Numbered from the stretch's first letter, positions 3,961 to 59,879 are shown. The stretch is 63,712 nucleotides of DNA from Chiloscyllium plagiosum (GCF_004010195.1 NC_057719.1:22652252-22715963), one strand, 5' to 3'. A program made the numbers and translations. Notes: a model not told the origin generated them from the sequence alone.

Positions 3961-4089
3961 CAATTCACACTATATTCTTGCTCTACTACAACATTTTCCC
4001 TCTCTTGCTGTCATCCACCTCATTCCTGACACAACAAACCTGACAAGAGATCTTCACTGCCTGCTCACTCAGCATTACAAAGATGATTG

Positions 4090-4297
4090 TTGAAAGTGTA
4101 GTGCTGGAAAAGCACAGCAGGTCAGGCAGCATCTGGGGAGCAGGATAATCAACATTTTGGGCAAAAGCCCTTCATCAGGAATCTTTTGCCCAAAACGCCG
4201 ATTCTCCTGCTCCTCAGGTGCTACCTGACCTCCTGTGCTTTTCCAGCACCACAGTCTCGACTCTAATCTCCAACATCTGCAGTCCTCACTTTCACCT
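4090..4297 (+). mobile_element. Fold-back mini Penelope-like element (inverted pLTR ends)
   Basis: The two arms are reverse complements. A 16 bp TSD ATTACAAAGATGATTG lies at 4074-4089 and 4298-4313, with a degenerate HHR at the turn. Confidence 0.85.
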
Positions 4298-5104
4298 ATT
4301 ACAAAGATGATTGCCATTGCACTCAGAAGTGGAGTATTGAACTGCAGAAGTGTACTGTAAATGGATTGGAGATGTGCCATCAGAGTTCTTAGAGGCTGGT
4401 ACATGACTGACATCAATCTTGGGTCTATGTGGCCGAAGCCTATGGAGCATGCCTTCAGATATTGTTGCCTGGAGTCTATCATGGAAGTACTGTGGAGCAA
4501 GCAGTGAACTGAAGGAGTTGGAGACCTGCTCTATCTTCCATGTTGAGAATTCTCAGAACTTAGTTTGCTTGAGGCAGCTAGCACAATAGGAAGTTCTGTA
4601 TTAATGAAGTGAGATCTGCAATTAATAAAAACCTTAACAAGCAATAATCCCTCACAGGAGGCAACCCACCTCTGCTTAACCAGAAACTCACATCAAAGCT
4701 GGGAAAGATGCAACATGTTCTTCCCAATGTCAAAATAGACCTCACTGGATTTCTCGCACAATTCTCTTACGTTTCTTGCCATTGCCTACATTATTCAGAG
4801 TTTCATACAATTCATGCCAGAATTTACTTTTCAAGTTCAATGACTCTTCTTTATACCTTTTAATCTCCAACAGATCTTTTAATGCAACGTCCCATCCTAC
4901 CTTAGACAACTCATGACTTACAACTCCATAATTTGCTTGTTCAAAGTTAAGACCCTCGGTTTGATCTTGACTAAATCAGTTTTGAATTTACAAAATTCCA
5001 AAAAAAGACCTATAATTTGATGGGAAACTCTTTTACCATATTTTACAGATTGTACAATATCAGATTTAAAACAACCTGTTACCCAATTGATTCCTTGAAA
5101 TTCC

Positions 5105-5340
5105 ATGAACACCACCATTTCCACGATTCAAACTTTGGAAATATTTTGTTATTTCTTAAGTGTCTTTGGGTCAAAAGTCTGGAATTTCTTCTCTAATAGC
5201 ATTGTTGGTCTAGTTAAAGCAAATAGACTGCACTGGTTCAAGAAGACAGCTCACCATGACCTTCTCAAGGGTAAATAGGGATGAGTAATAAATGTTGGCC
5301 ATCTAGTGACAGCCACATCTCATGGATGAATTTTAAATTG
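5105..5340 (+). mobile_element. LINE 3' end (second CR1/L2-group family)
   Basis: GGTTCAAGAAGACAGCTCACCA...AATAAATGTTGGCC...CCACATC tail, shared with 42790-43210 and 52640-53390. Confidence 0.65.
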
Positions 5341-6029
5341 AAGTCTGACTCCATTGCTTTCCACGCCTTCTTGTTTCTTAGCTTCATCCAAATTGATCTG
5401 CGTCCTGATTTTCCTTTTTCACTACTGTCTTTATTCCACTTTGTTTTCTATGTAAACTGTACAGCTCTTTGTCAATTTTCCTATCTCTTCCAAAGATTGA
5501 AAGTGGCTCCCAAGCTCCCAGTTCCAAATGAGTTCTCTCTTCTTTAGTGAAAATTTAAGGGGACAATATTCATTCATGTCTACTCCTAACTATCTGAGAA
5601 GGCATTTGACCTTTGTAAAGGGCACTTGACATCTCCCAAAGTCATTTTTAGATTTATCTAAAAGGGTACCTTAACTCTTCAAAGATTGTTGACAATATCA
5701 AACCCTTTCCTGAAAGATCTAAAGCTCACAAGCTGTGTTTTGAACCTCCCTGTTAGGAAAACTGATTTATTCAGTTAGCTGCACTTTCACGCATATTGCT
5801 GCTTCCTTGAACCACGGGAACATGCAAAGTTCAACCTGTTCTCAATTTGTCACGGTGAAACAATGAGTGTTAATGGGGCTGGACATTTAGAATTGACTCT
5901 CTGATGGTGTCAATTATCCTGATCATAACAACCCCAATAACTACCACACTCCTTGTCACACCAACACTTAAGTGATCACGGGCAACACAGTAAGATTTCC
6001 TCAGCTCTCGCATGGCAGGCAATGAAGCA

Positions 6030-6447
6030 GAATCATAGGCCATTCAGCATACTACTGCTCCTCGGATGGTGCCTGAACTGCTGTGCTTTTCCAGCACCGC
6101 TCTAATCTAGACTCTGGTTTCCAGCATCTGCAGTCATTGTTTTTACCTATTCAGCATATCAAGTCCACACTGACCTTCTGAAGAGCTTCCCACCCAGAGC
6201 CACCCCATCCCTGTAACACTGCATTTCCCATGGATAATTCACCTAGCCTGCACATCCTGGACACTATGGGCAATTTTGCATGGTCAATCCACCTAATATA
6301 CAGATCTTTGGCAGGAAACTGGAGCACCCGGAGGAAACCCACACAGCCACAAGAAGAACGTTCAAACTCCACACAGACAATCACCTGAGGGTAGAATCAA
6401 ACACTGGTGCTGTGAGGTAGCAGTGCTAACCACAGAGCCACCGTGCT
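6030..6447 (-). mobile_element. HE1 SINE interrupted by a PLE end
   Basis: Reverse complement of the HE1 head (CACGGTGGCTCTGTGGTTAGCACTGC) at about 6420-6447 plus the HE1 body. Confidence 0.85.
6052..6148 (+). mobile_element. Penelope-like element 3' end fragment
   Basis: Matches the pLTR end ...CCAGCATCTGCAGTCATTGTTTTTACCT. A 10 bp TSD ATTCAGCATA lies at 6042-6051 and 6149-6158. Confidence 0.8.
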
Positions 6448-14597: not shown

Positions 14598-15910
14598 CTA
14601 AATTCCTGGGAATTACAGGCCAGTCAGTCTTACGTCTGTGGTGGGCAAATTATTGGAGAGAGTGCTGAGAGACAGGATCTATGATTACTTGGAAAACCAA
14701 CATTTGATTACTGATAGTCAACATGGCTTTGGATGGGGCAGGTCATGACTCACAAACCTTATTGAATTCTTTGAGGATGTGACAAAACACATTGATGAAG
14801 GTAGAGCAGTGGTTGCGGTGTACACGGATTTCAGCAAGGCATTTGATAAGATTCCCCATTGTAGGCTTATTCAGAAAGTAAGGAGACATGGGATTGAGGG
14901 ACATTTAGCTGTCTGGACACAGAATTGGTTGGCCCATAGAAGACAGAGGGTGTTAGTAGAGGGAAAGTATTCAGCCTGGAGCTTGGTGACCAGTGGTGAT
15001 CTCCAGGGATCTGTTCTGGGACCTCTGCTCTTTGTGATATATAGAATTTTTGGATGAGGAATTGGAAGGGTGAGTTAGTACGTTTGCCGATGACAAAAAG
15101 GTTGGTGGAGTGGTGGACAGTGAGGAGGGCTGTTGTAGTTTGCAGTGGGACATTGACAGGATGCAGAATTGGGCTAAGAAGTGGCAGTCGGATTTCAACC
15201 TGGAAAAGTGTGATGTGATTCATTTTGGATGGTCAATTTGAATGCAGGATATAGGGTTAAAGGCAGGATTCTTGGTAGTGTGGATTTTGGGAGTCCAAGT
15301 CCATAGATTCCTCAAAATTGCCATGCAAATTGATAGAGTTGTTAAGAAGGTGTTGGCTTTCATTAGCAAGGGATAGAGTTTAAGAGCTGCAAGGTTATGC
15401 TGCAGCTCTATAAAACCCTGGTTAGACCACACTTGGAGCATTGTGTTCAGTTCTGGTCACCTCATTATAGGAAGGATGTGTGAGTTTTAAAGACTGTGCA
15501 GAGGAGATTTATCAGGATGCTGCCTGGACTTTGGCATGTCTTATGAAGAAAGAGCTGGGGCTTTTCTCATTGGCGTGAAGGATAAGATGTGACTTAATAG
15601 AGGTGTACAAGATGATGAGAGGCATAGATAGAGTGAATAGTGAGAGACTTTTGCCCAGGGCAGAAATGGCTATCACAAGGGGACATAAATTTAAGGTGAT
15701 TGCGGGAAGGTTGAGGGAAGATGTCAGAGGTTGGTTCTTTACACAGAGAGTGGTGGGTGTGTGAAATACACTACAAGTCATGGTAGTAGAGTCAGATACT
15801 TTAGCGACATTTAAGCAACTCTTGGATAGGCACATGGATGATAGTTTTATGAAAGATGAAAGGTCAGCACAACATCGAAGGACAAAGGGCCTGTACTATG
15901 CTGTACTATA
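14598..15910 (+). mobile_element. CR1/HER1 LINE, RT to 3' end, frameshifted
   Basis: ORF 14779..15057 reads YTDFSKAFDKIPH...QGSVLGPLLFVIY, followed by a FADD motif and the CR1 C-terminus and tail. Confidence 0.92.
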
Positions 15911-16129
15911 GGAGAAAGTGAAGACTGCAGATGCTGGAGATCAGAGCTGAAAATGTGTTGCTGGAAAAGCGCAGCAGGTCAGGCAGCATCCAAGGAACAG
16001 GAGAATCAACGTTTCGGGCATGAGCCCTTCTTCAGGAATGAAGAAGGGCTCATGCCCAATACATCGATTCTCCTGCTCCTTGGATGCTGCCTGACCTGCT
16101 GCGCTTTTCCAGCAACACATTTTCAGCTG
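15911..16129 (-). mobile_element. Fold-back mini Penelope-like element inserted in a CR1 tail
   Basis: Inverted arms of about 90 bp. A 12 bp TSD TGCTGTACTATA lies at 15899-15910 and 16130-16141. Confidence 0.88.
16008..16035 (-). ncRNA. Minimal hammerhead ribozyme core (PLE type)
   Basis: The minus strand reads CTGAAGA-A-GGGC-TCAT-GCCC-GAAACGTT: CUGANGA, stem II, GAAA, palindromic ACGU and an NUH triplet. Confidence 0.65.
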
Positions 16130-16489
16130 TGCTGTACTATACTAGGTTTAAAAAGAAAATAGTTTTGCCATTGCTGAATGAATGTTGTGATGGAAGTTGA
16201 ATAAGTTATATAATACATATATCATTTTGGGACTAGGATTTCAAAGTAGAGGCAGATGGATGTTAATTATTTCTGTGAAGAGTTTTCTTATGAACAGTTA
16301 GAACAGTCCTTCCACAACAGTGACCGAATATGCCCATGTGTCATAAAGCAGGTGACTGCAGGCCCCTAGTGGTGTTAATGAAAAGGTATGGTTAGGTTTA
16401 AGACAGGTCGGGGAAACAGTTAAAGCCATTAACTTTGCTACCAGCTCAGAAGAATCTAGGATTCATATTTTTTGTTTAATTTGGTCTTT

Positions 16490-16738
16490 GTGTCCCAGCT
16501 ATTTACAATCTGCATTAATGAGTCGGATACAGAGACAGGAGGCTCTACAGCCAAATTTGTGGATGACACTAATATAGGTAGGACAGTAAGTTGCAATGAG
16601 AAAATAAGAACCTTACAAGTGGTTATAGATAGGTTAGGAGAGTGGGCCAAAATGTGGCACATGGAGTTTAACGTGGCTAGGTGTGATGTCATGCATTTTG
16701 GTCAGAAAAATGGGAAGGCAACCTATTATCTAAATGGG
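16490..16738 (+). mobile_element. CR1 RT fragment, left half (continues at 19158-19836)
   Basis: ORF 16472..16753 reads AKFVDDTNIG...WHMEFNVARCDVMHFG...YYLNG. Confidence 0.85.
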
Positions 16739-16796
16739 TTGGAGTGGTGCTAGAAAAACACAGCAGTTCAGGCAGCATCCGAGGAGTAGGAAAATG

Positions 16797-16824
16797 GACG
16801 TTTCGGGCAAAAGCCCTTCATCAG
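16797..16824 (-). ncRNA. Minimal hammerhead ribozyme core (PLE type), intact
   Basis: The minus strand reads CTGATGA-A-GGGC-TTTT-GCCC-GAAACGTC with a GUC cleavage triplet. Confidence 0.7.
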
Positions 16825-17760
16825 GAATAAGGCAGAGTGCTTGCAGGGTGGAGAGATAAATGAGAGGAGGGTGGGGGTGGGGAGAAATAGCGTAGAGTAC
16901 AATAGGTGAATGGGGGTGGGGATGAAGGTGATAGGTCAGAGAGGAAGGTGGAGTGGATGGGTGGAAAGGAAGATAGGAAGGTAGGACAAGTCATGGGGAC
17001 AGTGCTGAGCTGGAAGTTTGGAACTGGGGTGAGCTGGGAGAAGGCTCTGCCTGCCACAGTCAGCCCTGCCACGGCTGAGGGCCACACTCTCTCAGAATTG
17101 CAAAGGAGCCCACCTTTACTATATCCTCAGGAGAATTCATACTCTCAACAAACAGTATTTCAACACCATCTCAAACATCAAAAACTGTAAGTACAACAAA
17201 CTTTTATCTACCCCCCTCCATAACCAGCGCTCTTCAAATATTCCAGTAGATTCCTCTGGCCTCTGGAACTGCTCGGATGCCATTAGCCATGTGGCTGGTG
17301 CAGCTACCATCCCCACGGTGATCGATGACGTCACTTCTGACCCCATCGTGGCCGCTTCCACAGCCACTTCCGCCCCTCACAGTTCCTCATGCACCACACG
17401 TGACATCACTTCCGCCCCTCACATCATTGCTGATGTCACACACTCAGTGACTTCCGCCCCCCCCCCCCCCCCACTGCCGTGGTCGCCACCACTTCCGTCC
17501 CCATCAATGCCATTCATCTGCATTCTGCTGACACGCCCCGCGCAGATCCCACTGTCACCATGCCCGCCCCCCAGAACCCTGAGGGGAACACCACCCCTGC
17601 TCATGACTCTACCCCCATTCCCCCCACCACCACACCCACTCCAGTTACAGGCTCCGCCCCCACACCGGATCCCTGCTCTCAGCCTTGCCGAGTTTTCACC
17701 ATCCCCCCCCCCCTCCCCCTCACTTCGCACGCATGATAGCAGGCAAGTTATAGTCAGAGG

Positions 17761-18277
17761 GTCATAAAGTCAGAGATGTACAGCATAGAAACAGATCCTT
17801 TGGTCCAACTTGTCCACGCCGACCAGATATCCCAACCCAATCTACTCCACCTGCCAGCACCTGGCCCATATCCCTCCAAACCCTTCCTATTCGTATACCC
17901 ATCCAGATGCCTTTTAAAATGTTGCAATTGTACCAGCCTCCAATCACTTCCTCTGGCAGCTCATTCCATACACGTACCACCCTCTGCGTGAAAAAGTTTC
18001 CTCTTAGGTCTCTTGTATATCTTTCCCCTCACCCTAAGCCTATGCCCTCTAGTTCTGGACTCCCCCAACCCAGGGAAGAGACCCTGTCTATTTATCCTAT
18101 CCATGCCCCTTATAATTTTATAAACCTCTATAAGGTCACCCCTCAGCCTCCAACACTCCAGGGAAAACAGCCCCAGCTTATTCGACCTCTCCCTATAGCT
18201 CAAATCCTCCAACTCTGGCAACATCCTTGTAAATCTTCTCTGAACCCTGTCAAGTTTCACAACATCCTTCCGATAGG
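17761..18277 (-). mobile_element. Young CR1/HER1 3' fragment inside the PLE filler
   Basis: ORF 17961..18260 reads RVQRRFTRMLPELEDLSYRERSNKLGLFSLE...RGDLIEVYKI. Confidence 0.92.
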
Positions 18278-19157
18278 GTACAACCTGATCTAAACTCTGC
18301 TCAAAATGGACAAAGATGAGCTGTTGAGCAGCAGCAACAAAGGTCTTATTTACTGACTGGCCTTCAAAGTGTCCTTAGCACATTTACAGAAGAATGCAAG
18401 TCAAGCATGAGCAGAAAGGGAGATGATGTCAGAGCTCTGAAAATGATGCACTCTGTTTTGGCAGAAGGGCCAGTGCACTCAGCCAAAGTCTGTGAATATA
18501 ATCTTTAATCACCAATCTGCAAGTGAGAAGACTCACCAAGTGTGAGCATATTTACTGAAGCAAGCTTCGGCCCCATAATTAACACTGTCTTGATTCACTG
18601 GCAAATTTCAGTAAGTTAAGAAAACATGAACTGAACATTGAAGTGAAAAATGTGTCTGTATCACTGAAATTTAATGTTATTTGTGTGCATGAAAACTCAC
18701 ATAAATCGGTGTTAAAATGTGAAGACAGCATATTAAAATGAGCTTCTGAACGCAATGCCAATTTCACAAATTTGAGACACTTCCCTGCACCCAAACCATG
18801 TGGTCTTTGACACCAAAATACAATATTTTAATGTTTAAATGAGGAAACAACGTTGTATGTTTGACAAGTTATTCTGAAGCAAAAACAGGTAATTTAATCA
18901 ATGTGGACTTCACCAGTTTCCTCACTTCCTCTCCCCCCACCTTACCCAGTTCCAAACTTCCAGCTCAGCACTGTCCATGACCTGTCCTACCTACCTATCT
19001 TCCTTTCCATCTATCCACTCCACCCTCCTCTGACCTCTATCACCTTCTCCCCGACCTTCATCGACCTATCGCCCTCGGATGCTGCCTGAACTGCTGTGCT
19101 TTTCCAGCATCACTCTAACCCAAAATCTGGTTTCCAGCATCTGCAGTCATTGTTTTT

Positions 19158-19836
19158 ACCTATTATCTAAATGGGGAGAGACTTCATGATGCTACATTAC
19201 AGTGGAATCTGGTTATCTTTGTGCATGAGTCACAGATTGTTGGCTTTGAAAGCTAAAGGACTCGAATATAAAGGTAAGGAAGTATTGTTGCAACTATACA
19301 TGGCATTGGTGAGACTGCATCTGGAGTATTGTGCACAGTTTTGTTGCCCTTTTTTTGAGGAAAGATATAGTGGCATTGGAGGCAGCTCAGAGGAGGTTCA
19401 CTAGATTGATCCCAGAGATGAGGGGTAAGTTGTATGAAGAGAGATTGAACAGTTTAGGTCTATACTCTCTAGAAATAAGAAGAATGAGGGAAGATCAAAT
19501 TGAGGTATTCAGGATGATAAGAAGTATGGGCAAAATAGACGTGAAGTAAATACTTCCTCTTGTGGAGCATTCTAGGATGAGAAGTCACAGTCTTATGATA
19601 AGAGTTGAGGAGAAACTACTTCTCCCAAAGGGTTGTGAATCTGTGGAGTTTGCTATCCCAAAGTGCAGTGGATGCTGGGGCAATGAGTAAATTTAAGGAG
19701 GAGTTACACAGATTTTTAATTGGTAACAGGTTGAAGGGTTAAGGACAGAAGGCAGGAAAATGGGCGTCAGCCATGATTGAATGGCAGAGCAGACTCGATG
19801 GGCCAAATGGCCTAATTTTGCTGCTATATCTTATGA
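19158..19836 (+). mobile_element. CR1 RT to 3' end, right half
   Basis: ORFs 19171..19404 and 19331..19549 (LVRLHLEYCAQF, QRRFTRLIPEM) followed by a CR1 tail. Confidence 0.88.
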
Positions 19837-20430: not shown

Positions 20431-21140
20431 GTGTGCAAATGCTTTATGAATTTCCTTGACGTATTCTTTAGTCAAAAGTCCAGCCCATTTAAAACAAATT
20501 GGAGAACGTCTCAAAAAAAAGCACAGGTGTATGTTATACAATATGTTATACATTTGCCTGCTAATGTCATCAATGTACTGTTTGTACTGTTATTTTATCA
20601 AGGAAGACATTGTACAGTTGCTAAGACCAAATATACAAAAGGGAAATTAGTAATCTAAAGGTTTACATTAAAGTCAATGTTTCAGATAATCTACACTGAA
20701 TTCTATAACTCCCAAGACTCACTAAGATTCATTCTCATTCTCCTGTAATTTTCTTGAGATGAGTGTTTCCTTAGGTGCAGGGAAATAACTTCAAGTAATG
20801 AACTAAAAACTTCCATCTGTAGTTTGATAACATGTTAAAATTCTATAAAACTGGTATCATTTTATTGCAGTCTTCAATTTTCAGTAACTAGATTCCAGTT
20901 AGTTTCTTTAAAACAACTTCAAAATTCATTGGAACTCATTGATTTTGCATATTAATGTCATGGAACATTTGATTTGTTGGCCTCAACAGTAACTCTCGAC
21001 AGGCTAGAATTTATTTGCAGAGAGAAACTCAACAATAATCTTACAGATCCTGATTATTTTAACAGCAGGATTTGTTTTAAATATCTTTAATAAGTTTTCC
21101 ACCTGACCAGCATCTAGCTTGACATTTAGACTGGCTGCAA

Positions 21141-22061
21141 TTTTTGAGAAGATTTGTAGCTCAGGTGGAGGTTCAGGTTGTAAGTTTGCTCGCAGAGCTG
21201 GAAGGTTTGTTTTCAGATGTTTCATCACTATGCTAGGTAACATCATCAATGAGCCTCCGGTGAAGTGCTGGTGTTACGCCCAGCTTTCTATTTGTCTGTT
21301 TTGGTTTTTTAAGGTGGATGATTTCATTTTTTCATCAGTTGGTAAAGGAGGTCCAAATCGATGTGTTTATTGATGGAGTTCTGTTTTGAATGCCAGGCTA
21401 CTAGGAATTCCCGTGAGTGTCTCTGTTTAGTCTGTCCTAGAATGGATGTATTGTCCTAGTCAAAGTGGTGTCCTTCTTCATTTGTATATAAGGATACTAG
21501 TAATGTGTTTTTGTGTCTTTTGCTGGCTATTTGGCATTCATGTATCCTGGTGGCTAGTTTTCTGCCTGTCTGTCCAATCTAGAGTTTGTTACAGTCCTTG
21601 CAGGGTATTTTGTAAATGACATTCCTTTTGCTGGTTGTTTGTATAGGATCTTTTAGGTTCATCAACCACTGTTTAAGTGTGTTGGTAGGTTTGTGGGCTA
21701 CCATGATGCCAAGGGATAGGAGTAGTCCAGTAGTCATTTTCAAGTGTCCTTGGTGTATGGTAATGTGGCCAGAGTTTCTGGGCGCATTGTATCTGCTTGT
21801 TTGGGTCTGTCATTTAAGAATTGGCAGATTGTGTTTATTGGGTACCAGTTCTTGAATATCCTGTATTGATATTTTTCTTCTGCTGCTTGTAGTTCCTGGG
21901 TGCTGCAGTGTGTTGTGGCCTATTTAAAAATGTCCTGATGCAGATCCATTTGTGCAAGAGGATAGAAACCTCACCGGAGGAGCACTGGTGATGTTACTTA
22001 GCATGGTGATGAAACATCTGAAAACAAACCTTCCAGCTCAGCCAGCTAATTTACAACCTGA
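21141..22061 (-). mobile_element. Penelope-like element (Poseidon-like) with GIY-YIG relic and inverted pLTR
   Basis: Minus strand at about 21510-21623 reads NVIYKIPCKDCNKL*IGQTGRKLATRIHE. Inverted arms at 21174-21263 and 21971-22061 each carry a decayed HHR. Confidence 0.88.
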
Positions 22062-23480
22062 CATAGAATGGCTTGCAGACAGGATTTCAGCTTGGTGGTG
22101 ATGACACCAAGGTGCTTGGATCATTGGAGTGAAACAAATGTTTAGGTTAGTTGGGGTTTGATTTAAAGGGGCAGGGAAGTTCTCGTTCTTCAAAGTTTGA
22201 TTAGGGGGCAGGAGTAGGCTAAATGGCTCCTCAACCCTGTCCTACCATTCAATACTTTACTCCTTTTCCACATACACCTTTGGGTCCAAGTATTTATCCA
22301 TCTAGGCCTTGATTATTTCAAACAACAGCATCCTGGGTCCTCCTGACAGCATGTTGGTCGCCTAACTCTAACTCATAAGTCTGATCTCTATAATGTTTCT
22401 AGGTGCATGCTAAGAGGGGCAATATTGTTTAGGGAAGGAATCATTAACTGTCTTAATCAGCTGAAGACATGGCTAATGTTCTAAGCTAAGGGGGTGAGGA
22501 TGAACGAGTGGTCAGAATTGAAGGATTGTAGAGTTCTTGAAAGATTGTAAAGCTGGAGGTGTTTCCAGAGATAGGGAGGAGTGAAGCAATACAGGCATAA
22601 GTAGCCAGTAGTTTAGGGCAAGGGTACTCTTTAAGGACATGATTCCATCTCTAAAAAACACAAAATGTTAATTTGCCATAAGAAACATTCTTCCACAATG
22701 ATAAATAAAACAAATACTTATGTAGTATGTTGGAACTGGGTAACCTGGAATCAGCTTTTCTATAATTTCATTTCTAATTGCAACCTCCCACCTACCCCTT
22801 GGCCCAAACTTGCAGGTAAAAACTCCCGCTGTTGTCTCCCCATTTTTAGGTGCATAACTTTATAGGATTTAATCATATTTAGTTTTCAGTTGTTCAGAAA
22901 TTTTACCCCTAGGTCCTCTGCATGGCCCATTGCTAAAGTGCTCTAATATTTTAGGGTTCTGAATTATAACTCACTGTTCTCTGATAAAATGCTTTTTTGT
23001 TGCATCCCTTCTCAAAAGAAAACCAAATGCCTTTCCCTCACTGAGTGATGTGCTATCTTTTATTCATTAATGGCACTTGCAGCTCATTTCTGAATTCTAG
23101 TATCAGTTCCTGACAAAAGGTTCACTATCAGAGTTTCAATTTATGCTCTAATTCTAAGAGTTCTTGAAGTGCATTGAGAATCCTATCACTTTGTGAGAAT
23201 TATTTCCTCTTTCGGAGCATGTTGCATTCTGAATAGGTCCAGATGGGGTTTGATAAGTTTATCGATTGTTGGATGGTTAGATTATTCTCAGGAATATTCT
23301 TGAAAGTCATGGATGCTGTAATCCTTATCTATTCAGGTATTTTGTATTCGTCATGCAGTTGTGAACTGTAATGATTTTCTCATGAGCTTTTTGGTTTGCA
23401 CATTGATTGATTTTTGCCTTCTAATATTTCAGTCTCTTGATGAAGCTTGACGTTTGTAAGCCTGTGATTGCTAAAATCAT

Positions 23481-29384: not shown

Positions 29385-29510
29385 TTCTGATAAAGGGCTT
29401 TGCCTAAAACATCAATTATCCTGCTCCTTGGATGCTGCATGACGTGCTGTGCTTTTCCAGCACCACACTCTCGACTCTAATCTCCAGCATCTGCAGTACT
29501 CACTTTCACC
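29385..29510 (+). mobile_element. PLE pLTR end starting at a decayed HHR
   Basis: CTGATAAAGGGCTTTTGCCTAAAACATC...CACTTTCACC, flanked by the imperfect repeat AAATCAAAATAT / AAACCAAAATAT. Confidence 0.8.
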
Positions 29511-30615: not shown

Positions 30616-31629
30616 TAGATTACAGGAGGACCGAGGCATGCAGGTTCATTTCTAGGTTTCCTGGACCCATCCCATCTCTATCCAATGCATAAATAAAACC
30701 ATCAACCTTTAAATCTCAAATGAAATGTAAACAATGTATAGAGATTTTCTCTCATAGATCTTTCTCTTATCCTGTCTGCAGGAATCTGCTTTTCTTCTCT
30801 AGTCTGCTCCCAAGGCCAATACAGGCTTTCAGGTGCAAAAGACCCTCTCCTGTTGTTTTTGCTCACAATGACTCAGAGGATTGAAGGGCCATACAGGCTA
30901 CAAATGTGCCTAATGGTGGTATGTTGTAAGATGTGGTCTTTTTCCTGTTGTAACATCTTTGTATAAATTTCCACTACATTAGGGACAGGTGGTAGAATCC
31001 ATAAAGTAAAGACATAGAAAGCTAAAAAATGCAGTAAGTTTTGAAAGTGGACCTGGAACTGAACATAGTGTTGAGGAAATATCATGGACTGACAGAAAGG
31101 AAGTTAGATTGTAGAAGAGGGTGTTTTATAGGAATAGTCAAGAACAAGATAGGAGGTTGTTTAAAGATCAAAATTGGATATGACTAAGGATCATGGAACA
31201 GGTTAGGAAAAACACTAGACATAGAAGCCCTTACAATTGCAATATTTTACAATATCTCCGAACAAATTAGAAGATAAATTGATAAGGATGCCAAAAATAG
31301 TTAGAAAGCTGAAAGAATTCAATGCATACATTAAGTTGCCTGACAGGAGAAAGCCATCTTTATCACACAGAAATGCACAAAAAACAGTCCTTTCTGATGG
31401 GACATATGAGACTAAAGCTGAACTAGTGGCTATTGGTTTCAGAGAGAGACCTGGTGATCATAATACTGTATTAGAGTCAATTCTTCTACAGCATGAAAAG
31501 TGAGTCTGAAAATATTTTAAGCTCTTTTAGCAACATGTTTGTGGGAATGCAATTGATACAGAGGTTACATTTTTGTAACAAATTGAAATACTTTTGACGC
31601 CACCTTTAAAAACTGTCAATATGGAGGAA

Positions 31630-31840
31630 GTTAAAAATCGCACAACACCAGGTTATAGTCCAACAGGTTTAATTGGAAGGCCACTAGCTTTCAGAGCATC
31701 ACTCCTTCATCAGGTGATAGTCCTGATGAAGGAGCAACGCTCCGAAAGCTAGTGAGCTCCCAATTAAACCTGTTGGACTATAACCTGGTGTTGTGCGATT
31801 TTTAACTTTGTACACCCCAGTCCAACACCGGCATCTCCAA
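31630..31840 (+). mobile_element. Fold-back mini Penelope-like element (second family)
   Basis: Near-perfect arms of about 85 bp. A 12 bp TSD AATATGGAGGAA lies at 31618-31629 and 31841-31852. Confidence 0.9.
31723..31751 (+). ncRNA. Minimal hammerhead ribozyme core (second PLE family), intact
   Basis: CTGATGA-A-GGAGC-AAC-GCTCC-GAAAGCTA, with palindromic AGCU in place of stem III and a CUA triplet. Confidence 0.65.
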
Positions 31841-32199
31841 AATATGGAGGAAATGTGTGAAAATTAAACGTATGTTTATGAGCTGAATCAAGCATCAAGG
31901 GTGTTGTATTTCTCAGTTAAGTCCATCCTACTAAAAATGAATTGTATTCGGTTAAAAGTAGCCCCACACGCGTTTTATTGGTATCAATAGGAGACACTAG
32001 CAGACATCTTTATGAAGCATATTGATAATCTTCTGTGGAGAGGTTCTGCAGAATTCGAGCAAAGTGTGATAGTTATAATAAATAAAAAATGTTTAAATCA
32101 GTAGTCAGACTTTATGGCCCTTTCAATACATCGGATAAGATATCAAGAAGATTAAGTCAGGAATGACCTTGCATCAGAAATCTTACTTAGAATAACATA

Positions 32200-33755: not shown

Positions 33756-34228
33756 AAACTTAATTGACCTCAATAAATGTGCCAGATCCTCACAGAAAGA
33801 AGACCTGCATCCAAGGTAAAATTAGATCAATTAGGATGTTTGATTTATCAGTTGAATAGATTACACTCTCAGACTAAACTTCCAGTATCACCTGTTGGAA
33901 CTTATTAAGCACCGTGACAGAACATGCCATGATTGAGGAGTTTCTGAGAGTAAATAAACCATTAAATAATTTAAATTGAAAGAAATATGCTCTTGAGTTT
34001 CCAGCCTGAGGTAATCCAGAAGATATGAAGTCAATCATTTTTAGTGAAGCTTCACACACCATTCTGCCTAACAGATTTTGTGGCTTGGTTGACAATCATA
34101 GTCCTGGCAGAAAACAATAACTTTTTTTCCATTGGCCTGGGAAGCCAAGAAATTAAAAATAGTCATTCCTAGCACTTTAGCTATTTAAAAACTGGTACTA
34201 GAAGAAGCAATAGATATGAGAAACAGCA

Positions 34229-34447
34229 TGGAGAAAGTGAGGACTACAGATGCTGGAGACCAGAGTCAAAAAGTGGCTGGAAAAGCACAGCTAGTCAGTC
34301 AGCATCTGAGGAGCAGGAGAGTCAATGCTTCAAGCATAAGTTCTTCATCAGGAATGTCATTCCTGATGAAGAGCTTATGCTCAAAACATTGACTCTCCTG
34401 CTCCTTGGATGCTGCCTGACAGGCTGTGCTTCTCTAGCACCACACTC
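34229..34447 (-). mobile_element. Fold-back mini Penelope-like element
   Basis: Inverted arms turn at GGAATGTCATTCC. A 12 bp TSD TGAGAAACAGCA lies at 34217-34228 and 34448-34459. Confidence 0.88.
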
Positions 34448-34994
34448 TGAGAAACAGCACACCTAATATTCTGAATGCAATCATGTAATGGGGAATCTGA
34501 AAAACCTATGCTCACAAAATGTAACAGATTACTATTATTTTTGGGAAAATGCTAATTTAACGAAGGGCATCACAGAGAAAAGGTTGAGAATGGAATCTGC
34601 TAGTGCAAACAAAACGTCAAAATGGAAAGGTTTTCTAAAATGAAATGGACTGATTGAAGTCACTGATTGTCAGCCAGTTTTACAATAAAAATGCTTATCT
34701 CAAACCTATCATTAGATACCTCCCAAAAGTGATGCCTTGAGTCTTAATGAGAATATGAAATATTATGATATATGAACATGGATAGTAATTTAATTGAAAA
34801 TTGTTTTGTAATTATGTTTAAATATCATATTTTTAAAGGAATAATATGTAGTCTGTTAATGATTGGTTATATTATAATATGAGTCATAGATTAAAATAAT
34901 TTTATTTCTTTTTGATTAGTTTTGAAGACATTGTTATTAACGTTTATATTGAATGGTCTAATCTGTTGCTATCTTGTCACCTCATTGTTAAGGA

Positions 34995-35110
34995 AAGAAG
35001 GACTTATGCCCGATTCTCCTGCTCCTTTGGTGCTGCCTGACCTGCTGCGCTTTTCCAGCAACACATTTTTCAGCTCTGATCTCCAGCATCTGCAGTCCTC
35101 ACTTTCTCCT
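34995..35110 (+). mobile_element. PLE pLTR end fragment
   Basis: GAAGGACTTATGCCCGATTCTCCTGCTCC...CACTTTCTCCT, with the imperfect flanking repeat ACCTCATTGTTA / ACCACATTGTTA. Confidence 0.8.
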
Positions 35111-37589: not shown

Positions 37590-38050
37590 GCATGCAAAAG
37601 GCAGCAGAAAAATAAAGTCACTATAGTCCTACCGGATAACAGAGCAGCACTCTCATTAGAGAGAGTTTAGATTAGAGTGGTGCTGGAGAAGCACAGCAGG
37701 TCAGGCAGCATCTGAGGAGCAGGAAAATCAACATTTCGGGCAAAAACCCTTCATCAGGGATGGAGCATCTGATGAAGGGCTTTTGCCCAAAACGTCGATT
37801 TTCCTGCTCCTTGGATGCTGCCTGACCTGCTGTGCTTTTCCAGTACCACTCTAATCTAATCTCTGGTTTCCAGCATTTGCAGTCCTCACTTTTGCCTCTT
37901 ATTAGAGAGAGGCAAGATTTGGTAGTTTATCCTGAGGGTCACCATGCCTGAGGCGAAGGGGAAAGTTGAGAAGAAGAATCCTTCATGATAATCTCAGCTG
38001 GAATTGAACCCAGTCTATTGGCATCACCCTACATTGTAAACCAACCAATA
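37590..38050 (-). mobile_element. Non-HE1 tRNA-derived SINE, interrupted by a PLE hairpin
   Basis: Minus-strand B box GGGTTCAATTCC at about 37999-38010. Confidence 0.55.
37666..37895 (+). mobile_element. Fold-back mini Penelope-like element
   Basis: Inverted arms of about 90 bp. A 16 bp TSD CTCT(C/T)ATTAGAGAGAG lies at 37650-37665 and 37896-37911. Confidence 0.88.
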
Positions 38051-44165: not shown

Positions 44166-45156
44166 GTATGATGCTACTGGCGTTAAAAAAAACAGTGTAT
44201 AACCCAGTGACTTGTTTAATAGTCCATATTTTACTAATTACTCCTCATTAATTTTATTTCCTGTTATTATGATTTTTGGTCACATTGATACATCATTGTT
44301 TAATAGTGAAAATCATTATGTGATCATATTCAATGTTCTTGCATTAACATTGATTGTCTGCATAAATATTCAGCTTCAAATTATAAATATCAGTAAATTA
44401 TTGCTTTTAATTGTCTTTGCATGAGAGACACAACTAGCAGGCAGGAAAAATTTTAAAAAATCTGGTTGTTGCAGATGATCTTGAAACACCTATCAAACAA
44501 GAGGGGAGAAGACCTGTCAGACAGAAAGTTGCATTTGGAATGAGCTATCGATGGAAATTTTCTCTGAAGTGCATCGAATGTTTTACACTACTTCAAAGCA
44601 AATACGTCTCGTACAGACAGCCATGGAGCTGCGACAGGCCGGAGGTTTTAAAAAAGTCAGTTTATAAAAATCACAGACTTCTAACAGTCTGGGCTAATGT
44701 AGAAGGTCTGCAATTGACAGGAATCAATGAATGTAGCCAGACATTTTTTGACACTGCAGGTTACTAATTTGAAGAAGGCATTGCTCTTTCTAAAGTAAAT
44801 CCAAGATAAATAATTAATGGAGTGCCTTGTGAAATGTAAAAGATTCTAAATTCATCTTTTTTGTAAAAGCCTGAAGACCTTTGCAGCATTCTTTCATTCC
44901 TCTCTGAACTTATAAATGAATGGAAATAGGGATCCTATTTTTTTCTGAATATTATCCAATCAGGGAGATTGCAATCTGTGCAGACCATTGCCATTGGGGA
45001 ATACTGGAGTCTATAGGCAGAATTGTTTCCAGGGTATACCAGATGGTAATGAACTCTTTCAGCTGTTCCAACTATGTATGTTGGTAGCACTCTTGTCCAG
45101 GATCTAGAGCTAATGGGTTTGGAATGCCACTTCAAGATGTCACATAAATATAGGAA

Positions 45157-45424
45157 GAATGTCTCATCTTCCGCCTCGGAACACTTCAACCCCAGGGCAT
45201 CAATGTGGACTTCACCAGTTTCCTCATTTCCCCTCTCCCCACCTTACCCCAGTTCCAGCCTTCCAGCTCAGCACTGCCCTAATGACCTGTCCTACCTGCC
45301 TATCTTCCTTTCCACCTATCCACTCCACCCTCCTCTCTGACCTATCACCTTCCCTGCTGTGCTTTTCCAGCACCACTCTAATCCAGACTTAGGTTTCCAG
45401 CATCTGCAGTCCTCGTTTTTACCT
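45157..45424 (+). mobile_element. PLE 3' fragment with internal deletion
   Basis: ECLIFRLGTLQPQGINVDF end of ORF plus pLTR. The HHR-bearing segment is missing, as in 18897-19160. Confidence 0.85.
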
Positions 45425-49022: not shown

Positions 49023-49029
49023 AAGAAAG

Positions 49030-51239: not shown

Positions 51240-51530
51240 AAAAAAAGTTCTGATTTACATATGAAATAACTGAAACCAACATGGTAATTCTAAAAGATGA
51301 GAGACTTAACAAACAATCTAGGTCTTTTTCAATATATAATTTCAGTTGCATCACACAGTGAACATTTGCTATAAATTCTGTGTCTTACAATCTTATACTC
51401 CACAACCACGTGATGAAGGAGCAGCACTCCAAAAGCTAATCATGCTAAATAAACCTATTGGATGATAACCTGGTGTTGTATGATTTTTAACTTTGTCCTT
51501 CCCAGTCCAACACCAGCACCTCCAAATCAT
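51240..51530 (+). mobile_element. PLE 3' end (second family)
   Basis: Homologous to 31722-31840, with a decayed HHR GTGATGAAGGAGCAGCACTCCAAAAGCTA at about 51410-51438. Confidence 0.8.
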
Positions 51531-53952: not shown

Positions 53953-54219
53953 AGGTAAAAACAATGACTGCAGATGCTGGAAACCAGATTCTGGATTAGT
54001 GGTACTGGAAGAGCACAGCAGTTCAGGCAGCATCCGAGGAGCAGTAAAATCGACGTTTCGGGCAAAAGCCCTTGAACAAGGGTGAGGTGGGGGAAGGGGA
54101 AATGAGGAAACTATTGAAGTTCACATTGATGTCCTGGGGTTGAAGTGTTCCGAGGCGAAAGATGAGGCATTCTTCCTCATGGTGGTGAGGGAGCGGCGGT
54201 GAAGGAGGCCCAGGACCTG
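53953..54219 (-). mobile_element. PLE 3' fragment
   Basis: Reverse-complemented pLTR plus EEECLIFRLGTLQPQDINVNF (ORF 54023..54283). Confidence 0.85.
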
Positions 54220-55440
54220 ATGCTTTTACACAGTTAAGGTTCGATTTTGTGAATTCATCCTCCTGCTGTGGAGCTTTGTGCATTAGCAGTGCACATTACA
54301 AATGCAGGCACGAAGCTATTAATTCTAAAAAATGGGCACCCCTGTGAAATCTGCCAGCCACCTCACTCAGATTCCAAAATTGCACTTCCAACATGGAAAT
54401 CCCTGCTTGCAGAGTGCAAATTTATAAAATTGATCCAGCGGTTGTAAAATTTGGTAGGAGTGTAGAAAAGATGACAACATTTGGGCATCCATTATACATC
54501 GTGCCCAAATTTCACTAAATATCAGATAGAATGCTTGCAGGCAGCCTGTCCAACTTCACTCATCCTCCACACTGCCAGAGGTGAAGGTTTTAATCTCCTC
54601 AGAAATTCATGTGAGAAAGTAATCCTGGCAGTTACAAGATCACACTGAGCAAGGACTTTCTTCCATTGATTCCCGATGGCATATGCAGAATCGGAGAGTT
54701 CACCACGTTTTCCTGAGGTTGATGGCAACCATAAGGTTGATAACCTATAGATTATCTTGGCCATCATTTATATATGTTCTAAGTCCAAATAGTCGATAAT
54801 TCTGTTGGCACTCTATTTGTTAAGTTAAAGCTTTGTTGATGCTTATGCTATATTTTCTTGTGACTCATAGTCATTTTGTTTGATTGGCAATGATAAATAT
54901 ATTGTTCCTGTGAATGGAGCTTTACGAATTGGCGCTAATCTTGGCATATTTTCCCTTACCTCTGCTGTGCCTAAGTGAAAAGGGGCGAATCTGCTCCCTT
55001 CTTTTTAATTCCCTCTGGCGGAAACAAAAAATTTTAAAACCTTTTTATCATGCAGCTTACCTCACTTGATTAGAAATATAATTCACCAGTTCATAAGGAT
55101 CAAATGTCAGCCAGTTATAAAGTTTTCTTGTTTGAAAGATAAAGCAGTTTTAATACTTGCCAAATCAAGAAATTAATAAATCAAAATGAGACAGCAAACA
55201 TGTACTCACACGCGAATATTAAGTTTAAAAAAGGGAGAGAGCCAAATATAAAATGGGTGATTAGAAAATGTGCAGGATAAAAGTCTTTACAGTCTCCTTG
55301 GATTATTAACTTTTAAATTCAGACTGCAGTCAGTTAAAATTATGTCTTGCACTTTCAGCAGCTGTGAATGTTGAGATAGCATTGAGTTCTTAGGAAAAGG
55401 TTAATTTTCCAATTGGCTTTATCAAGGATTGAATCATTTG

Positions 55441-56760: not shown

Positions 56761-57029
56761 GTTGGTGAGTATCTCATAAATGGCTAAATTCTATACTGTT
56801 CTTAAGTTTTAAAATAATATAGGAACTGATGGTAAGGTTAGTAAACCAAATTCATTACAATATGTGACTACACAGTCATGCCAAATTGATCCAGCCATCA
56901 TGAGTTTCAGCCAATGTTCTTTGATTCATTTAAAATTTACCTTTTTTTTAAAAAAAGTTCATTGTATGAAATAGCTGATGAAATTACTATCTAACATTTG
57001 ATATGAGGACACCTTCAGAACACAGGTCT

Positions 57030-58240
57030 AAAAGAGACTATTTCCTGGTTAGTTCTAAGAATCTGTCCCAAATACATTCATAACCTCCAATGCTACTTTT
57101 GCCGATTTGCTTTGTCCAATTCACATGAAAATCACATTCGCTTGTGATTATTGTAATACCTTTCTTACAAGCTCCTATTATTTGCAATCGTTGTATAGTG
57201 TAGCTTTTGTTGGACAGTCTATAAACATCTTCCACCAGTGAATTCTTTGAATTGTTATTTCTTATCTCTATTTAAAATTGTCTTCACATCTTGATATTCT
57301 GAACCAAGATTATTTCTCAGCATTGATCTAGTGTAATCTTTGGTTAAGGGAGCTGCACTACATCCTTTTTCTTTCTGCTGATTATTTCAAAATGTTAGAT
57401 ACCCTCTGAATATTTAGTTCCCAACCTTGGTCACACTGCAACCAAGTCTTTGCAATGGCTACCTTACTGTACTCACTCATGTATATTTTTGCTATCAGTT
57501 TGTCTAATTTCTCTGGAATCCTGCATGATTTCAGAGGAAGTACCTTTAGTTCTGTATTTTTACCATTTTTCTGTACTCAGACCTTATCTACTGGCACACT
57601 CTTATTAATATATGGTCTGTTCCTTTCAGTCATAGTCTGTGTACCATTTTCCATCTTAATACTCTGCTCAGTTGCCTTTTCCTTACACAGTGACTATCAA
57701 AATTTCCCCTCAAATGACCTGTCCCCCACACCACCCACTATTTAGATTAAATACTTCTCTACAGTCCTGATCATATGGTTTGCTAGGAGACAGTTCCCAA
57801 CAAAATTCAAATAAAATTCATCTCAACATCTCAGCTCCCCTTCTTCCCTGTTCTAATGCCAATGGCCCATAAATCAAAACCAGCTTCTTGCATACTAAAC
57901 ACAAAACCGCACATTTGACTTTCTGATCTAATTTATCCTCTGCCAATTTACTTGTGGCTCAAGTATTGATGCAGAGATTATTGTCTTTGTGGTTCTGTTT
58001 TTTAATTTAGTCCTTGACTACTGATTGCCCCCGAACACATTATCTTTCTCAGTATTACCTATGCTGTTGTTACCTACATAGTTAATGATAACTGGAGACT
58101 TTCCCTCCCAGTCAAGTTCCTCTGCAGCTTCAAAGAGATGTCCTTAGCTCTGACACCAGACAGGCAACACAGCCTTTGGGATTATGCTCTTGGTTGCAGA
58201 GAACAGCGTCAATTTCTCTTAATACTCTCTCAGCAAGTTT
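57030..58240 (-). mobile_element. CR1 ORF1 end and endonuclease, decayed
   Basis: ORF 57038..57235 reads VYRLSN...DFHVNW. IAKTWLQ-like and VGNNSIG-like motifs also occur on the minus strand. Confidence 0.7.
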
Positions 58241-59491
58241 CCTTCTCAAAATGACAAGAGTGAATCAGTAACAATTGACAGCTACATGAGCATTTTTACT
58301 GATGGCTTTGTTTTATTCAAACCATTAAAAATTCTTTCAAGCTGATTTTTTTCTTTATATGTTGATGATTTGAATAATTTCAATTAACACTGCCAGATAA
58401 TTCTAGCTCTAAATCTTTTTATTTGCCCTACAGCAAAAAGAAGCAATTATAAAATGTAATATTGAATGCAGTAACCTTGCTGAAATACTTGAAACACTCT
58501 CATCAGTGTCTTAAACTGATGTATTGTATTTTGAAAAAGTGCTGAAAGACTTAAAGGAAGCTCAGTCACTAAGATCAAACAGGTGAAAGATTGCCTCAGT
58601 GCAGATCACAGTGATAAGTGATTGAGCACATTGAGCACATAATGTGCCATTGTTTCATCTGTATGCCCTATCTAGCTCGAGACAAAGTAATTGATTGCAA
58701 GAAACTTGAAGCTTGCATCTAGACTTGCAAAAACTATACTCCTTACTGAATTTAAATCATCAGCCACTATTTTCAGAAGCTAGATACATTTATTCTTAGA
58801 ACTGCAACTTGTAATGTTACTTAACTCTTGGTGCTGATGAGTGTCTTTGCCACTAGAAAGAACTGATAGATTCCTAATGATGTGTGATAGAAGCACAGTG
58901 GAATTTGGAATTTTGAAATTTCAGTAGCACAATTCTGCCTTTGGAAGAGTTCTTATGGAAATGTAACCAATTTTACTTGGTTAAAATTGTCACCGACCGT
59001 TGCCGACAATAAGAAAATGGCCTGAATAGATGAGAAAGAGTCAGGATAGCAGATATAATGAACTAGAAATAGAGATATTGACCTCAGTTCAACTGGCACA
59101 TGCCCACCACCAATCACCAGTTGATTTTTTGGCATATGCATATAGGATTTGGAGCTTCACAATATATTTAAAATCAGACTCTTCTCGTACAATTGGAAGA
59201 TCAATGTAAATTTGACTTTTTCCTTTTCAGGTGTCTGATTTGTCTCAGAATTTGGCAGCATCAGGGAGATGTAGGAGGGAAAAGTAGGAGTGCTTGTTCC
59301 TCTGACTTGTCTGTATCCATTCTCCAGTCTCCAGACCCACCTCCATCTGATTGACCTTGTCCCGCAACCCCAACTGCTTTCTAACCACCGTTCCCCCAGT
59401 TTGTCCCAATCACTTGCAAAACTCACTTGCCCTGTCTTGACTGTCAGATTCTAAATACATTTTTAGGCTTCCTTGTGTCCCCCTACTCTCT

Positions 59492-59655
59492 AGGAGAAAG
59501 GGAGGTCTGTAGGTGCTGGAGATCAGAGTCGAGAGTGTGGTGCTGGAAAAGCACAGCAGGTCAGGCAGCATCCGAGGAGCAGGAGAATCGACGTTTCAGA
59601 CCTCATGTTCCTCGGATGCTGCCTGACCAGCTATGCTTTTCCAGCAACACACTCT
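59492..59655 (-). mobile_element. Fold-back mini Penelope-like element (short)
   Basis: Inverted arms and a 14 bp TSD TCCCCCTAC(T/C)CTCT at 59478-59491 and 59656-59669. Confidence 0.85.
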
Positions 59656-59879
59656 TCCCCCTACCCTCTGCCCACGCAGTGGTTTATCAATGCATTTATT
59701 TTACCCAGTACATCGATAATCAGGATGAGGGCAACTTTCTATGTTTATGCTCTTGGCATTGAACCTTGAACATTAATCACATATATTTAAGGAAATAGCA
59801 AAGGCATGTTTCCAAATTAACACAGTTGCAGTTTCTTGTTCCAAGCTTAAACTCAGAAAAATGAGTTATACATCCAAGA

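Follow-up and report, generated by a model that had tools for sequence, protein, structure and literature searches.

In the work of Frangieh et al. (2024; PMC11167929) on the Anolis element Poseidon, a protein of Penelope-like elements (PLEs) nicks and extends both target strands, and reverse transcription has two internal starts whose interval is the tail and which lie near the ORF start, just downstream (∼110 nt) of the hammerhead (HHR), the cleavage of which is dispensable for insertion; inverted mini-insertions and a fixed 5′ end are not derived in that text. Units of endonuclease-bearing PLEs are described as a 5′-truncated inverted copy standing head to head with a direct copy, with a tail of 30-40 bp at one end, a target-site duplication (TSD), an HHR in the pLTR and, where the two copies meet, an overlap or short palindrome (Craig et al., 2021, PMC8557442; Arkhipova et al., 2013, PMC3846280). 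The origin of tandem and inverted PLE structures is still termed undefined in the former source (PMC8557442).

The 63,712-nt stretch of Chiloscyllium plagiosum DNA analyzed here (the window) contains short fold-back insertions, or hairpins, that share these features and are minimal forms of the published unit, consisting of inverted copy, direct copy and one-ended tail. Since the inverted PLE structure is already known, the hairpins are not a new class of element; they are very probably ordinary inverted PLE insertions. In the published units, as these sources present them, an ORF separates the repeats and arm size varies, whereas the hairpins mostly hold only the last 95-130 nt and their 5′ ends pile up where the HHR begins on its upstream side; their TSDs measure 12-16 nt, compared with 8-10 nt given for rotifer PLE. 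Of possible importance is the sharp edge that the 5′ ends form shortly before the HHR, seen in three organisms; it argues against the ribozyme cut as the feature that delimits the copied RNA and suggests a fixed, mappable end of the template.

Inverted insertions and parent families

Inverted pairs no more than 300 nt apart occur eight times in the window, and the six fold-backs reported in an earlier note on this DNA are the six longest of them (Table 1). All six are indeed present, with arms of 93, 96, 87, 87, 81 and 54 nt that are 83-94% complementary, and the TSD lengths of 16, 12, 12, 12, 16 and 14 nt had been given correctly, the last two each with one mismatch. Their assignment to PLEs, and to two families, is likewise upheld: five loci belong to family A and only 31630 to family B, which as a query matched no family A copy in the window. 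The earlier inventory had overlooked two long inverted insertions and three long single copies.

The hairpins have a common plan of TSD, antisense arm, junction, sense arm and TSD, with the element 3′ ends pointing outward, and the head-to-head arrangement of an inverted 5′-truncated copy and a direct copy recurs in all six and in the two long insertions. Exactly one arm carries the tail in each of these eight inverted insertions (P = 0.004 if independent); its length is 34-40 nt in all seven measured, the one-sided tail of the family C insertion being recognized by alignment, and all seven single copies are tailed as well. TSDs of 12-18 nt were found by script in seven of the eight; for the family C insertion the script detected none, and a degenerate duplication of ∼13 nt was seen by eye only. 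A MITE or DNA-transposon reading was rejected on sequence and established knowledge, given arms unequal by a fixed tail, non-reciprocal element ends and long, variable TSDs, as was an assembly artefact, given arms that differ by 6-17% and the presence of TSDs.

Table 1. PLE-derived insertions in the window. 5′ ends are counted from the C of CTGANGA; junctions were read by eye (±2-3 nt).
Feature	Coordinates	Strand	5′ end	Remarks
Fold-back 4090, family A	4074..4313			TSDs 4074-4089, 4298-4313; both arms with a broken or missing HHR core
4090, tailless antisense arm	4090-4182		-4	
4090, tailed sense arm	4183-4297		+12	
Fold-back 15911, family A	15899..16141			TSDs 15899-15910, 16130-16141; ≤3 nt in common at junction; same subfamily variants on both arms
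15911, tailed antisense arm	15911-about 16041		-4 to -6	intact core
15911, tailless sense arm	about 16039-16128		+2	
Fold-back 31630, family B	31618..31852			TSDs 31618-31629, 31841-31852; sole locus with HHR cores of both arms intact
31630, tailless antisense arm	31630-about 31720		about -7	
31630, tailed sense arm	31722-31840		about -1	
Fold-back 34229, family A	34217..34459			TSDs 34217-34228, 34448-34459; loop-free blunt joint; HHR cores broken in both arms
34229, tailed antisense arm	34229-34356		-5	
34229, tailless sense arm	34357-34447		-6	
Fold-back 37666, family A	37650..37911			TSDs 37650-37665, 37896-37911; short spacer between arms
37666, tailless antisense arm	37666-37762		about -5	intact core
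37666, tailed sense arm	37769-37895		about +1	
Fold-back 59492, family A	59478..59669			14-nt TSD, 1 mismatch; turn downstream of CTGANGA box
59492, tailed antisense arm	59492-about 59601		about +17	
59492, tailless sense arm	about 59602-59655		about +33	
Inverted insertion 16739-19161 (2.4 kb), family A	16721..19175			18-nt direct repeats at its ends
16739-19161, tailless antisense arm	16739-about 17038			∼215 nt past HHR; intact core, C at 16824
16739-19161, ORF N-terminal remnant	17039-17737			
16739-19161, LINE-like repeat	17758-18277			
16739-19161, without assignment	18278-18896			
16739-19161, far end	18897-19161			ORF end and tailed pLTR end, internal deletion
Inverted insertion, family C	21139..22062 (start approximate)			tailed antisense arm ∼800 nt, decayed ORF end
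Family C, tailless sense arm	from about 21968		about -17	
Single tailed arm, family A	29385..29510	+	about -2	13-nt TSD, 1 mismatch
Single tailed arm, family A	34995..35110	+	about +5	
Single tailed arm, family A	6049..6149	+	about +34	10-nt TSD
Single tailed arm, family A	60092..60181	+	about +38	TSD looked for, none found
Long copy, family A	45152..45424	+		ORF end, 3′ UTR, HHR-removing internal deletion, tailed end
Long copy, family A	53953..54240	-	about +7	ORF end joined to pLTR end at this position; tailed
Single tailed copy, family B-related	51340..51530	+		reaches upstream of HHR motif

The decayed ORF end of family C is related to RT/GIY-YIG proteins (nine relatives, seven with RVT_1 and one with PF01541), Pfam itself giving nothing on this remnant. 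The family A remnants matched the unnamed proteins P0001 and P0004 only, with no Pfam match and nothing named by the protein atlas, and they carry apparent PLE-like motifs; none of 153 candidates was a full-length family A protein, and no coding remnant of family B was identified in the window. The family A arm is a putative ORF start, as in Anolis and rotifer elements: an open frame runs through most family A arms, yet the nearest protein has a different N-terminus.

The hammerhead motif

The claim that the PLE ends contain a minimal HHR is borne out as a prediction from sequence: the CUGANGA/GAAA/UH core is present with a bulge before G10.1-C11.1, and 15.2-16.2 is palindromic in four of the five intact cores. 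These five were found among 17 arms examined, four of them in fold-back arms (three of the six loci) and one in the arm at 16739; in the other eight of the 12 fold-back arms the core is broken or absent. Helix I is predicted to be weak (two pairs, a mismatch, one pair), and the predicted cut lies between +28 and +29 (16797/16796). Metazoan PLE minimal hammerheads are described with the same CUGANGA core, unpaired base before G10.1-C11.1, palindromic 15.2-16.2 and short helix I, and as mostly solo motifs from truncated PLEs, as here (Cervera and De la Pena, 2014; PMC4209133). The same account places opposite-strand HHR pairs of Schistosoma ∼100-700 bp apart, whereas the opposite-strand arms with their predicted HHRs abut here (0-16 nt apart), and helix II, with 4-5 bp, is also unlike that of the hammerheads described there. 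A search of Rfam gave no hammerhead match; six matches to miRNA hairpins or precursors, below gathering scores, reflect the hairpins only.

The earlier note had further proposed a dsRNA stem that masks its own ribozyme. Folding is supported (-97 to -182 kcal/mol), but most of the cores that such a stem would mask are already broken. As PLE-derived DNA makes up ∼7% of the window, intronic hairpins may be an abundant source of dsRNA. Places with A>G numbered 47 in RNA and 30-32 in DNA, which is indistinguishable from paralogue variation.

Position of the 5′ ends

Ten of the 12 fold-back arms have their 5′ end within -9 to +12, the exceptions being those of 59492, so that the clustering of turns at the HHR claimed earlier is found in five of six loci; the single arm at 29385, said to begin at the same point, does so. 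The main cluster, at -4 to -7, falls on the upstream border of the HHR, ∼30 nt from the predicted cut. Of the 23 arm ends in the window none falls into the predicted cut zone (+25 to +32) and six are situated upstream of the HHR by over 60 nt; three outer ends and an internal junction (+41) occupy the stretch from +33 to +41, immediately 3′ of the fold. A zone of 22 nt holds 12 of the 23 ends (P = 1e-4 to 4e-8 under a uniform null), or seven of 15 when counted per insertion (P = 0.15 to 0.004, two tries allowed), the zone in both cases having been picked after seeing the data. Breakpoints are unevenly spread both in this tally and in public contigs and reads, and the latter support the cluster more strongly than these statistics. 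The clustering of breakpoints at the HHR motif is confirmed and located at the upstream edge, away from the cleavage site. Bases -6 to -1 resemble an initiator motif.

About 10% of the partly aligned public contigs stop at this one place: 363 of 3388, 389 of 3781 and 300 of 3189 contigs from three organisms end loosely behind 16828 (-4), and their continuations are long and heterogeneous (median 255 nt, agreement 0.31-0.32). RNA-read depth falls 10-fold across the edge, from 724 to 71; part of the step stems from sister subfamilies that diverge there from the reference (joints 16828 to 16894-16930), and in DNA contigs the depth over the upstream 3′ UTR is still 25-46% of that over the HHR region. 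The RNA run gave no pile-up of molecule beginnings or ends, a point on which a poly(A) single-cell library is uninformative. The best-supported 15 of 107 joints included no RNA-supported (circular) joint in this library and no strand change, the latter a weak result with inversion junctions unsampled, and the 24 of 1165 loose-end rows listed showed no peak 3′ of the HHR. A 19-nt family A motif had no match in viral contigs and 15 in metagenome contigs, all of them similarities of only 17-22 nt, i.e., chance. No paper stating an edge just upstream of the HHR was found in the literature searched, which was largely without subscription journals, supplements and figures.

Relationship between arms

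Arms of one locus are closer to each other than to those of other loci (distance 0.097 in six pairs vs. 0.176 in 60 pairs); six of the 12 arms are closest to their partner, which ranks only 7th to 10th for three others. Between loci, arms of the same type (0.178) and of opposite type (0.174) are about equally distant, i.e., there is no clustering by arm type. CpG and C>T account for 27 of the 53 differences between arms and A>G plus T>C for seven, as in neutral CpG-type decay. No junction recurs: the six loci have six different ones. The tailless ends match the 3′ end of the target by 1, 2, 2, 0, 4, 0 and 4 nt at seven loci (sum 13; chance of ≥12, 5e-4), which would be expected for priming or annealing.

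Origin of the hairpins

We read each hairpin as a dead-on-arrival insertion of an endonuclease-bearing PLE, made anew at each site. Two staggered target nicks would prime one cDNA apiece, which would begin at the tailed start in one case and at the tailless start in the other; over ∼95-130 nt the two cDNAs would reach the point where the template RNA has its fixed 5′ end, in the simplest case the transcription start, and end joining would link them head to head. A lone cDNA would leave a single tailed arm, and a longer or tandem template would give rise to long copies. The turn would then coincide with the HHR by virtue of the ribozyme's place at the leading end of the template and not through cutting or blocking, and the stub ends a few bases before the motif may mark the start of the copied RNA. 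We partly infer this sequence of two nicks, two starts, template run-off and head-to-head joining, and consider it as a whole moderately probable. In LINE-1 twin priming, too, both target nicks prime cDNA and produce a 5′ inversion inside the TSD, the two pieces being neighbouring parts of one RNA; unlike these, both hairpin arms cover the same segment, so two templates or two rounds would be needed.

The main rival likewise treats the hairpin as an ordinary PLE insertion made anew per site: the cDNA would stop near -6, snap back on its own 3′ palindrome and be copied back, and the endonuclease would resolve the product at the tailless site. Palindromes at inverted junctions were interpreted as self-priming by Arkhipova et al. 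(PMC3846280) and the tail was attributed to endonuclease resolution by Craig et al. (PMC8557442); a 3-bp inverted repeat spans -6 to +4 in some copies of family A, the junction of 15911 is exactly this fold and 59492 also fits, both loci agreeing equally well with snap-back and with the two-nick origin, and variants common to partner arms would follow directly. It is nevertheless rather unlikely, as the tailless arm carries 5′ sequence absent from the tailed one, so that a copy of the tailed cDNA could hardly have supplied it, at 4090, 31630, 37666 and 16739-19161, and by 1 nt at 34229, where the arms reach -5 and -6 without a loop. The earlier note had instead let the HHR set the stop of reverse transcription. 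The 5′ end of predicted helix I falls on the edge, the Anolis HHR is described as protein-assisted (PMC11167929), and the ends just 3′ of the fold could be such stops; but reverse transcriptase halted, or switched to another template, by the fold or a protein on it should stop on entry, from the 3′ side, whereas the main cluster lies on the far, 5′ side, where the partner strands would already have been copied. Together with the weak helix I and the absence of a 3′-side peak among the loose ends listed, this makes a stall improbable.

Self-cleavage of the template as the cause of the breakpoint is barely credible: three outer ends (+33, +34, +38) do fall 5-10 nt past the predicted cut, on its downstream side, as trimmed run-off of a cleaved RNA might, but it was rejected on position, given the empty cut zone and a main cluster ∼30 nt upstream, and HHR mutants are reported to leave in vitro PLE insertion unaltered, with no RNA-seq ends found at the cut in Anolis (PMC11167929). 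[quoted passage not shown] This is very improbable here: the single family A read-through copy has no AG immediately before -5, arms abut each other or the TSD at -2 to -6 without exon-like filler (34229, 15911, 4090, 29385), and the loose ends at 16828 show no coherent upstream-exon consensus (agreement 0.31-0.35). A self-propagating hairpin-retrozyme class, transcribed and retroposed as a unit, had also been suggested; density (six in 64 kb), uniform size and TSDs speak for it, as do the two cores kept by family B copy 31630, and with a sample of five family A loci a rare replicating lineage could escape notice. Non-LTR retrozymes, as described, resemble the hairpins in being non-coding, pLTR-derived, equipped with type I HHR and commonly dispersed as monomers (Li et al., 2026; 10.64898/2026.07.22.740005). 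They are, however, defined there as direct tandem arrays with at least two consecutive complete HHRs, whereas the units here are all inverted or single, mostly with broken cores, and were rejected as retrozymes on this ground and for their unique junctions. With no grouping of arms by type, CpG-type decay and, weakly, no strand-change joint among those best supported, this reading is extremely unlikely and, locally, largely refuted.

Returning to the two-nick, two-start origin, we tentatively suggest that the stubs could be PLE ‘strong-stop’ footprints, left by a dimeric protein that primes both target strands at two internal starts close to the 5′ end of its own mRNA, runs off at a transcription start 4-7 nt ahead of the core and links the two short cDNAs. 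If true, this step would explain together why one arm is inverted, why only one side has a tail and why the turn is fixed, and long PLE copies would require a tandem template or a template jump. Tip deletions after insertion could imitate any junction. The many shark copies would make the strong-stop reading directly testable.

Fold-Back Insertions and Their Hammerhead Motif

The fold-back PLE insertions described in the earlier note are real and mostly ordinary, and they hold one testable mechanistic clue. A search for inverted pairs no more than 300 nt apart recovered all six at their positions as the longest of eight pairs, with arms of 54–96 nt and 83–94% complementarity. The target duplications of 16, 12, 12, 12, 16 and 14 nt were confirmed (one mismatch in each of the last two), as was the presence of two PLE families, with five loci in family A and 31630 (loci are named by their start in the window) in family B, whose query matched B copies only. 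As had been claimed, the inversion turns near CTGANGA: with the C of this box as +1 and junctions read by eye to within 2–3 nt, 10 of the 12 arm 5' ends fall between -9 and +12. Since the predicted cut of the hammerhead ribozyme (HHR) lies between +28 and +29, the turn sits some 30 nt away from it, at the upstream edge of the HHR fold. The units are also predicted, as anticipated, to fold into dsRNA hairpins from either strand, with folding energies of -97 to -182 kcal/mol.

Intact HHR motifs in the window have the core boxes, an unpaired base before G10.1-C11.1, a short helix I, a helix II of 4–5 bp and, in 4/5, palindromic 15.2-16.2, features that they share with the minimal PLE hammerheads as these are listed in PMC4209133. 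The core is intact in only four of the 12 fold-back arms, spread over three of the six loci, and an Rfam search gave no hammerhead match.

Fold-back arm ends and internal joins in the window, relative to the C of CTGANGA (+1)
Feature	Window position	Family	Position relative to +1	Basis
Fold-back, arm 5' ends	4090 (start)	A	about -4/+12	read by eye
Fold-back, arm 5' ends	15911 (start)	A	about -6/+2	read by eye
Fold-back, arm 5' ends	31630 (start)	B	about -7/-1	read by eye
Fold-back, arm 5' ends	34229 (start)	A	about -5/-6	read by eye
Fold-back, arm 5' ends	37666 (start)	A	about -5/+1	read by eye
Fold-back, arm 5' ends	59492 (start)	A	about +17/+33	read by eye
Internal join	19069/19073	A	about +41	
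Internal join	45352/45353	A	about +57	
Internal join	54074/54075	A	about +7	

Other Insertions of the Same PLE Ends

At least 15 insertions of such PLE ends lie in the window, including two long inverted ones that had been overlooked. The first (16739-19161, family A) is flanked by 18-nt direct repeats; its tailless antisense arm continues ~215 nt beyond the HHR, its tailed end has an internal deletion, and its ORF remnant shares 64% identity over 239 aligned residues with the unnamed protein P0001. The second (~21139-22062) represents a third HHR-bearing family, C, whose short arm has its 5' end ~17 nt upstream of the HHR core and whose antisense long arm bears a decayed ORF end with relatives that carry an RT domain (7/9) or GIY-YIG (1/9). 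Relatives of the coding remnants in the window include a protein of Chiloscyllium punctatum (71%) and proteins of Stegostoma tigrinum (69–75%), which makes a carpet shark the probable host. Of the seven single copies, four begin near -2, +5, +34 and +38 and three far upstream. Given these long inverted and single copies, the short fold-backs are one extreme of a size range.

Across the window, 12 of 23 arm ends lie within -9 to +12, six are over 60 nt upstream of the HHR, and none falls at +25 to +32, around the predicted cut. Against a uniform null, and for a zone chosen post hoc, this clustering has P = 1e-4 to 4e-8 when counted per arm and P = 0.15 to 0.004 when counted per insertion with two tries allowed. 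A minor cluster of 5' ends (6049, 19073, 59602 and 60092; n = 4) occupies +33 to +41, close to the predicted cut on its downstream side.

In three family A copies, internal joins lead from 3' UTR/ORF-end sequence into the pLTR end and represent either internal deletions or template jumps. Most family A arms have one open frame (~+45 to +128) that runs from a Met codon through the tail, in which length differences between subfamilies stay in-frame; it may be the ORF start, and P0001 gives no confirmation. The ~600 nt at 18278-18896, between the 18-nt direct repeats that flank the long family A insertion, have no repeat match in the window and could be captured host DNA or a remnant of another element.

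Mechanism of Insertion

All eight inverted insertions combine one arm with an extra outward tail (34–40 nt in the seven measured) and one tailless arm, and all seven single copies are tailed. This inverted architecture is already known, the shark families being new examples of it: the window's insertions match the unit that Craig et al. (PMC8557442) depict and that of Arkhipova et al. (PMC3846280), the latter with a 31-bp tail, junction overlap and TSD, and hammerhead pairs on opposite strands, 100–700 bp apart, were noted in 2014 (PMC4209133). Our literature search found no publication that describes a fixed edge on the upstream side of the HHR.

In vitro, the protein of an Anolis PLE nicks and extends both strands, and reverse transcription has two internal start sites that delimit the tail and lie ~110 nt into an ORF beginning inside the HHR; cleavage by the HHR is dispensable (PMC11167929). 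If each of two staggered target nicks primed one antisense cDNA, the observed arrangement would follow directly, with an antisense and then a sense arm on the top strand between the two TSD copies. Over seven loci, matches between the tailless ends and the 3' end of the target add up to 13 nt (chance 5e-4). We favour a mechanism in which two cDNAs would run to a fixed template end and then be joined, because the tailless arm holds 5' sequence absent from the tailed arm in five loci and because both arms of 34229 extend to the same edge with no loop. The main rival, snap-back self-priming of one cDNA as suggested by Arkhipova et al. (PMC3846280), is consistent with 15911 and 59492 but does not readily yield the longer tailless 5' ends or the loop-free 34229. 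For two run-off cDNAs, the fixed template end would presumably be the transcription start. In D. virilis Penelope the start lies ~120 nt upstream; the intron of that element terminates at helix I (PMC4209133).

The Edge in Public Reads

The read-through arm 16741-17040 was compared with three DNA runs, each from a different organism, and with a single RNA run. An even spread of breakpoints, which the earlier note held would remove the link to the ribozyme, was not found: the edge just upstream of the HHR is real and appears in all four runs. Among the 24 of 1165 loose-end rows listed, partly placed contigs of the DNA runs end behind 16828 (-4) in 363 of 3388, 389 of 3781 and 300 of 3189 cases; a private change at 16829 in the reference arm pools ends from -4 to about -8 there. 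This is ~60 times the average for one side of a single place, and on a par with the element's 3' end. Continuations past 16828 are long (median 255 nt) and heterogeneous, as would be expected of unique flanks, with an agreement of 0.31–0.32 as against 0.67–0.79 for ends into known repeats. DNA-contig depth of the upstream 3' UTR is still 25–46% of that of the HHR region. No strand-changing joint occurs among the 15 of 107 joints listed, and inversion points are thus unsampled.

In the RNA run, 93 and 91 of 1105 partly placed reads stop at 16828-16829, and crossing the edge lowers the depth from 724 to 71. Sister subfamilies that diverge at this point contribute to the step. Both strands are represented among the RNA reads, whose source is most likely genomic copies within host transcripts. 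On the minus strand, 16840-16870 holds a pyrimidine tract followed by CAG (majority letter of the reads), ~16 nt before the HHR core, by analogy a possible splice acceptor like that of the D. virilis Penelope leader.

Propagation of the Fold-Backs

A self-propagating hairpin class, considered in the earlier note, is not borne out in the window, where the six loci have six different junctions, the outcome that the note tied to ordinary truncated-inverted insertions; a rare lineage could escape a sample of five family A loci. Partner arms are 0.097 apart (six pairs) versus 0.176 between loci (60 pairs; CpG columns excluded), and tailless-tailless and tailless-tailed distances (0.178 and 0.174) reveal no clustering by arm type. 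An arm's own partner is its nearest sequence in six of 12 cases, ranks within the top three in nine and 7th to 10th in three. The 53 differences between partner arms, 27 of them CpG or C>T and seven A>G or T>C, read as neutral decay without an editing signature. Retrozyme membership was rejected, since the units are not tandem, against the definition given in 10.64898/2026.07.22.740005.

Other Repeats

The window also contains a 79-bp inverted pair (24707-24785 and 25336-25414; 98.7% identity, 550 nt apart) without a hammerhead motif, and a direct repeat of ~180 bp (26786-26965 and 27263-27446; 90% identity). Decayed LINE-type endonuclease/RT frames, with a weak RVT_1 match, occupy 61972-63410, and many related LINE 3' fragments are dispersed across the window.
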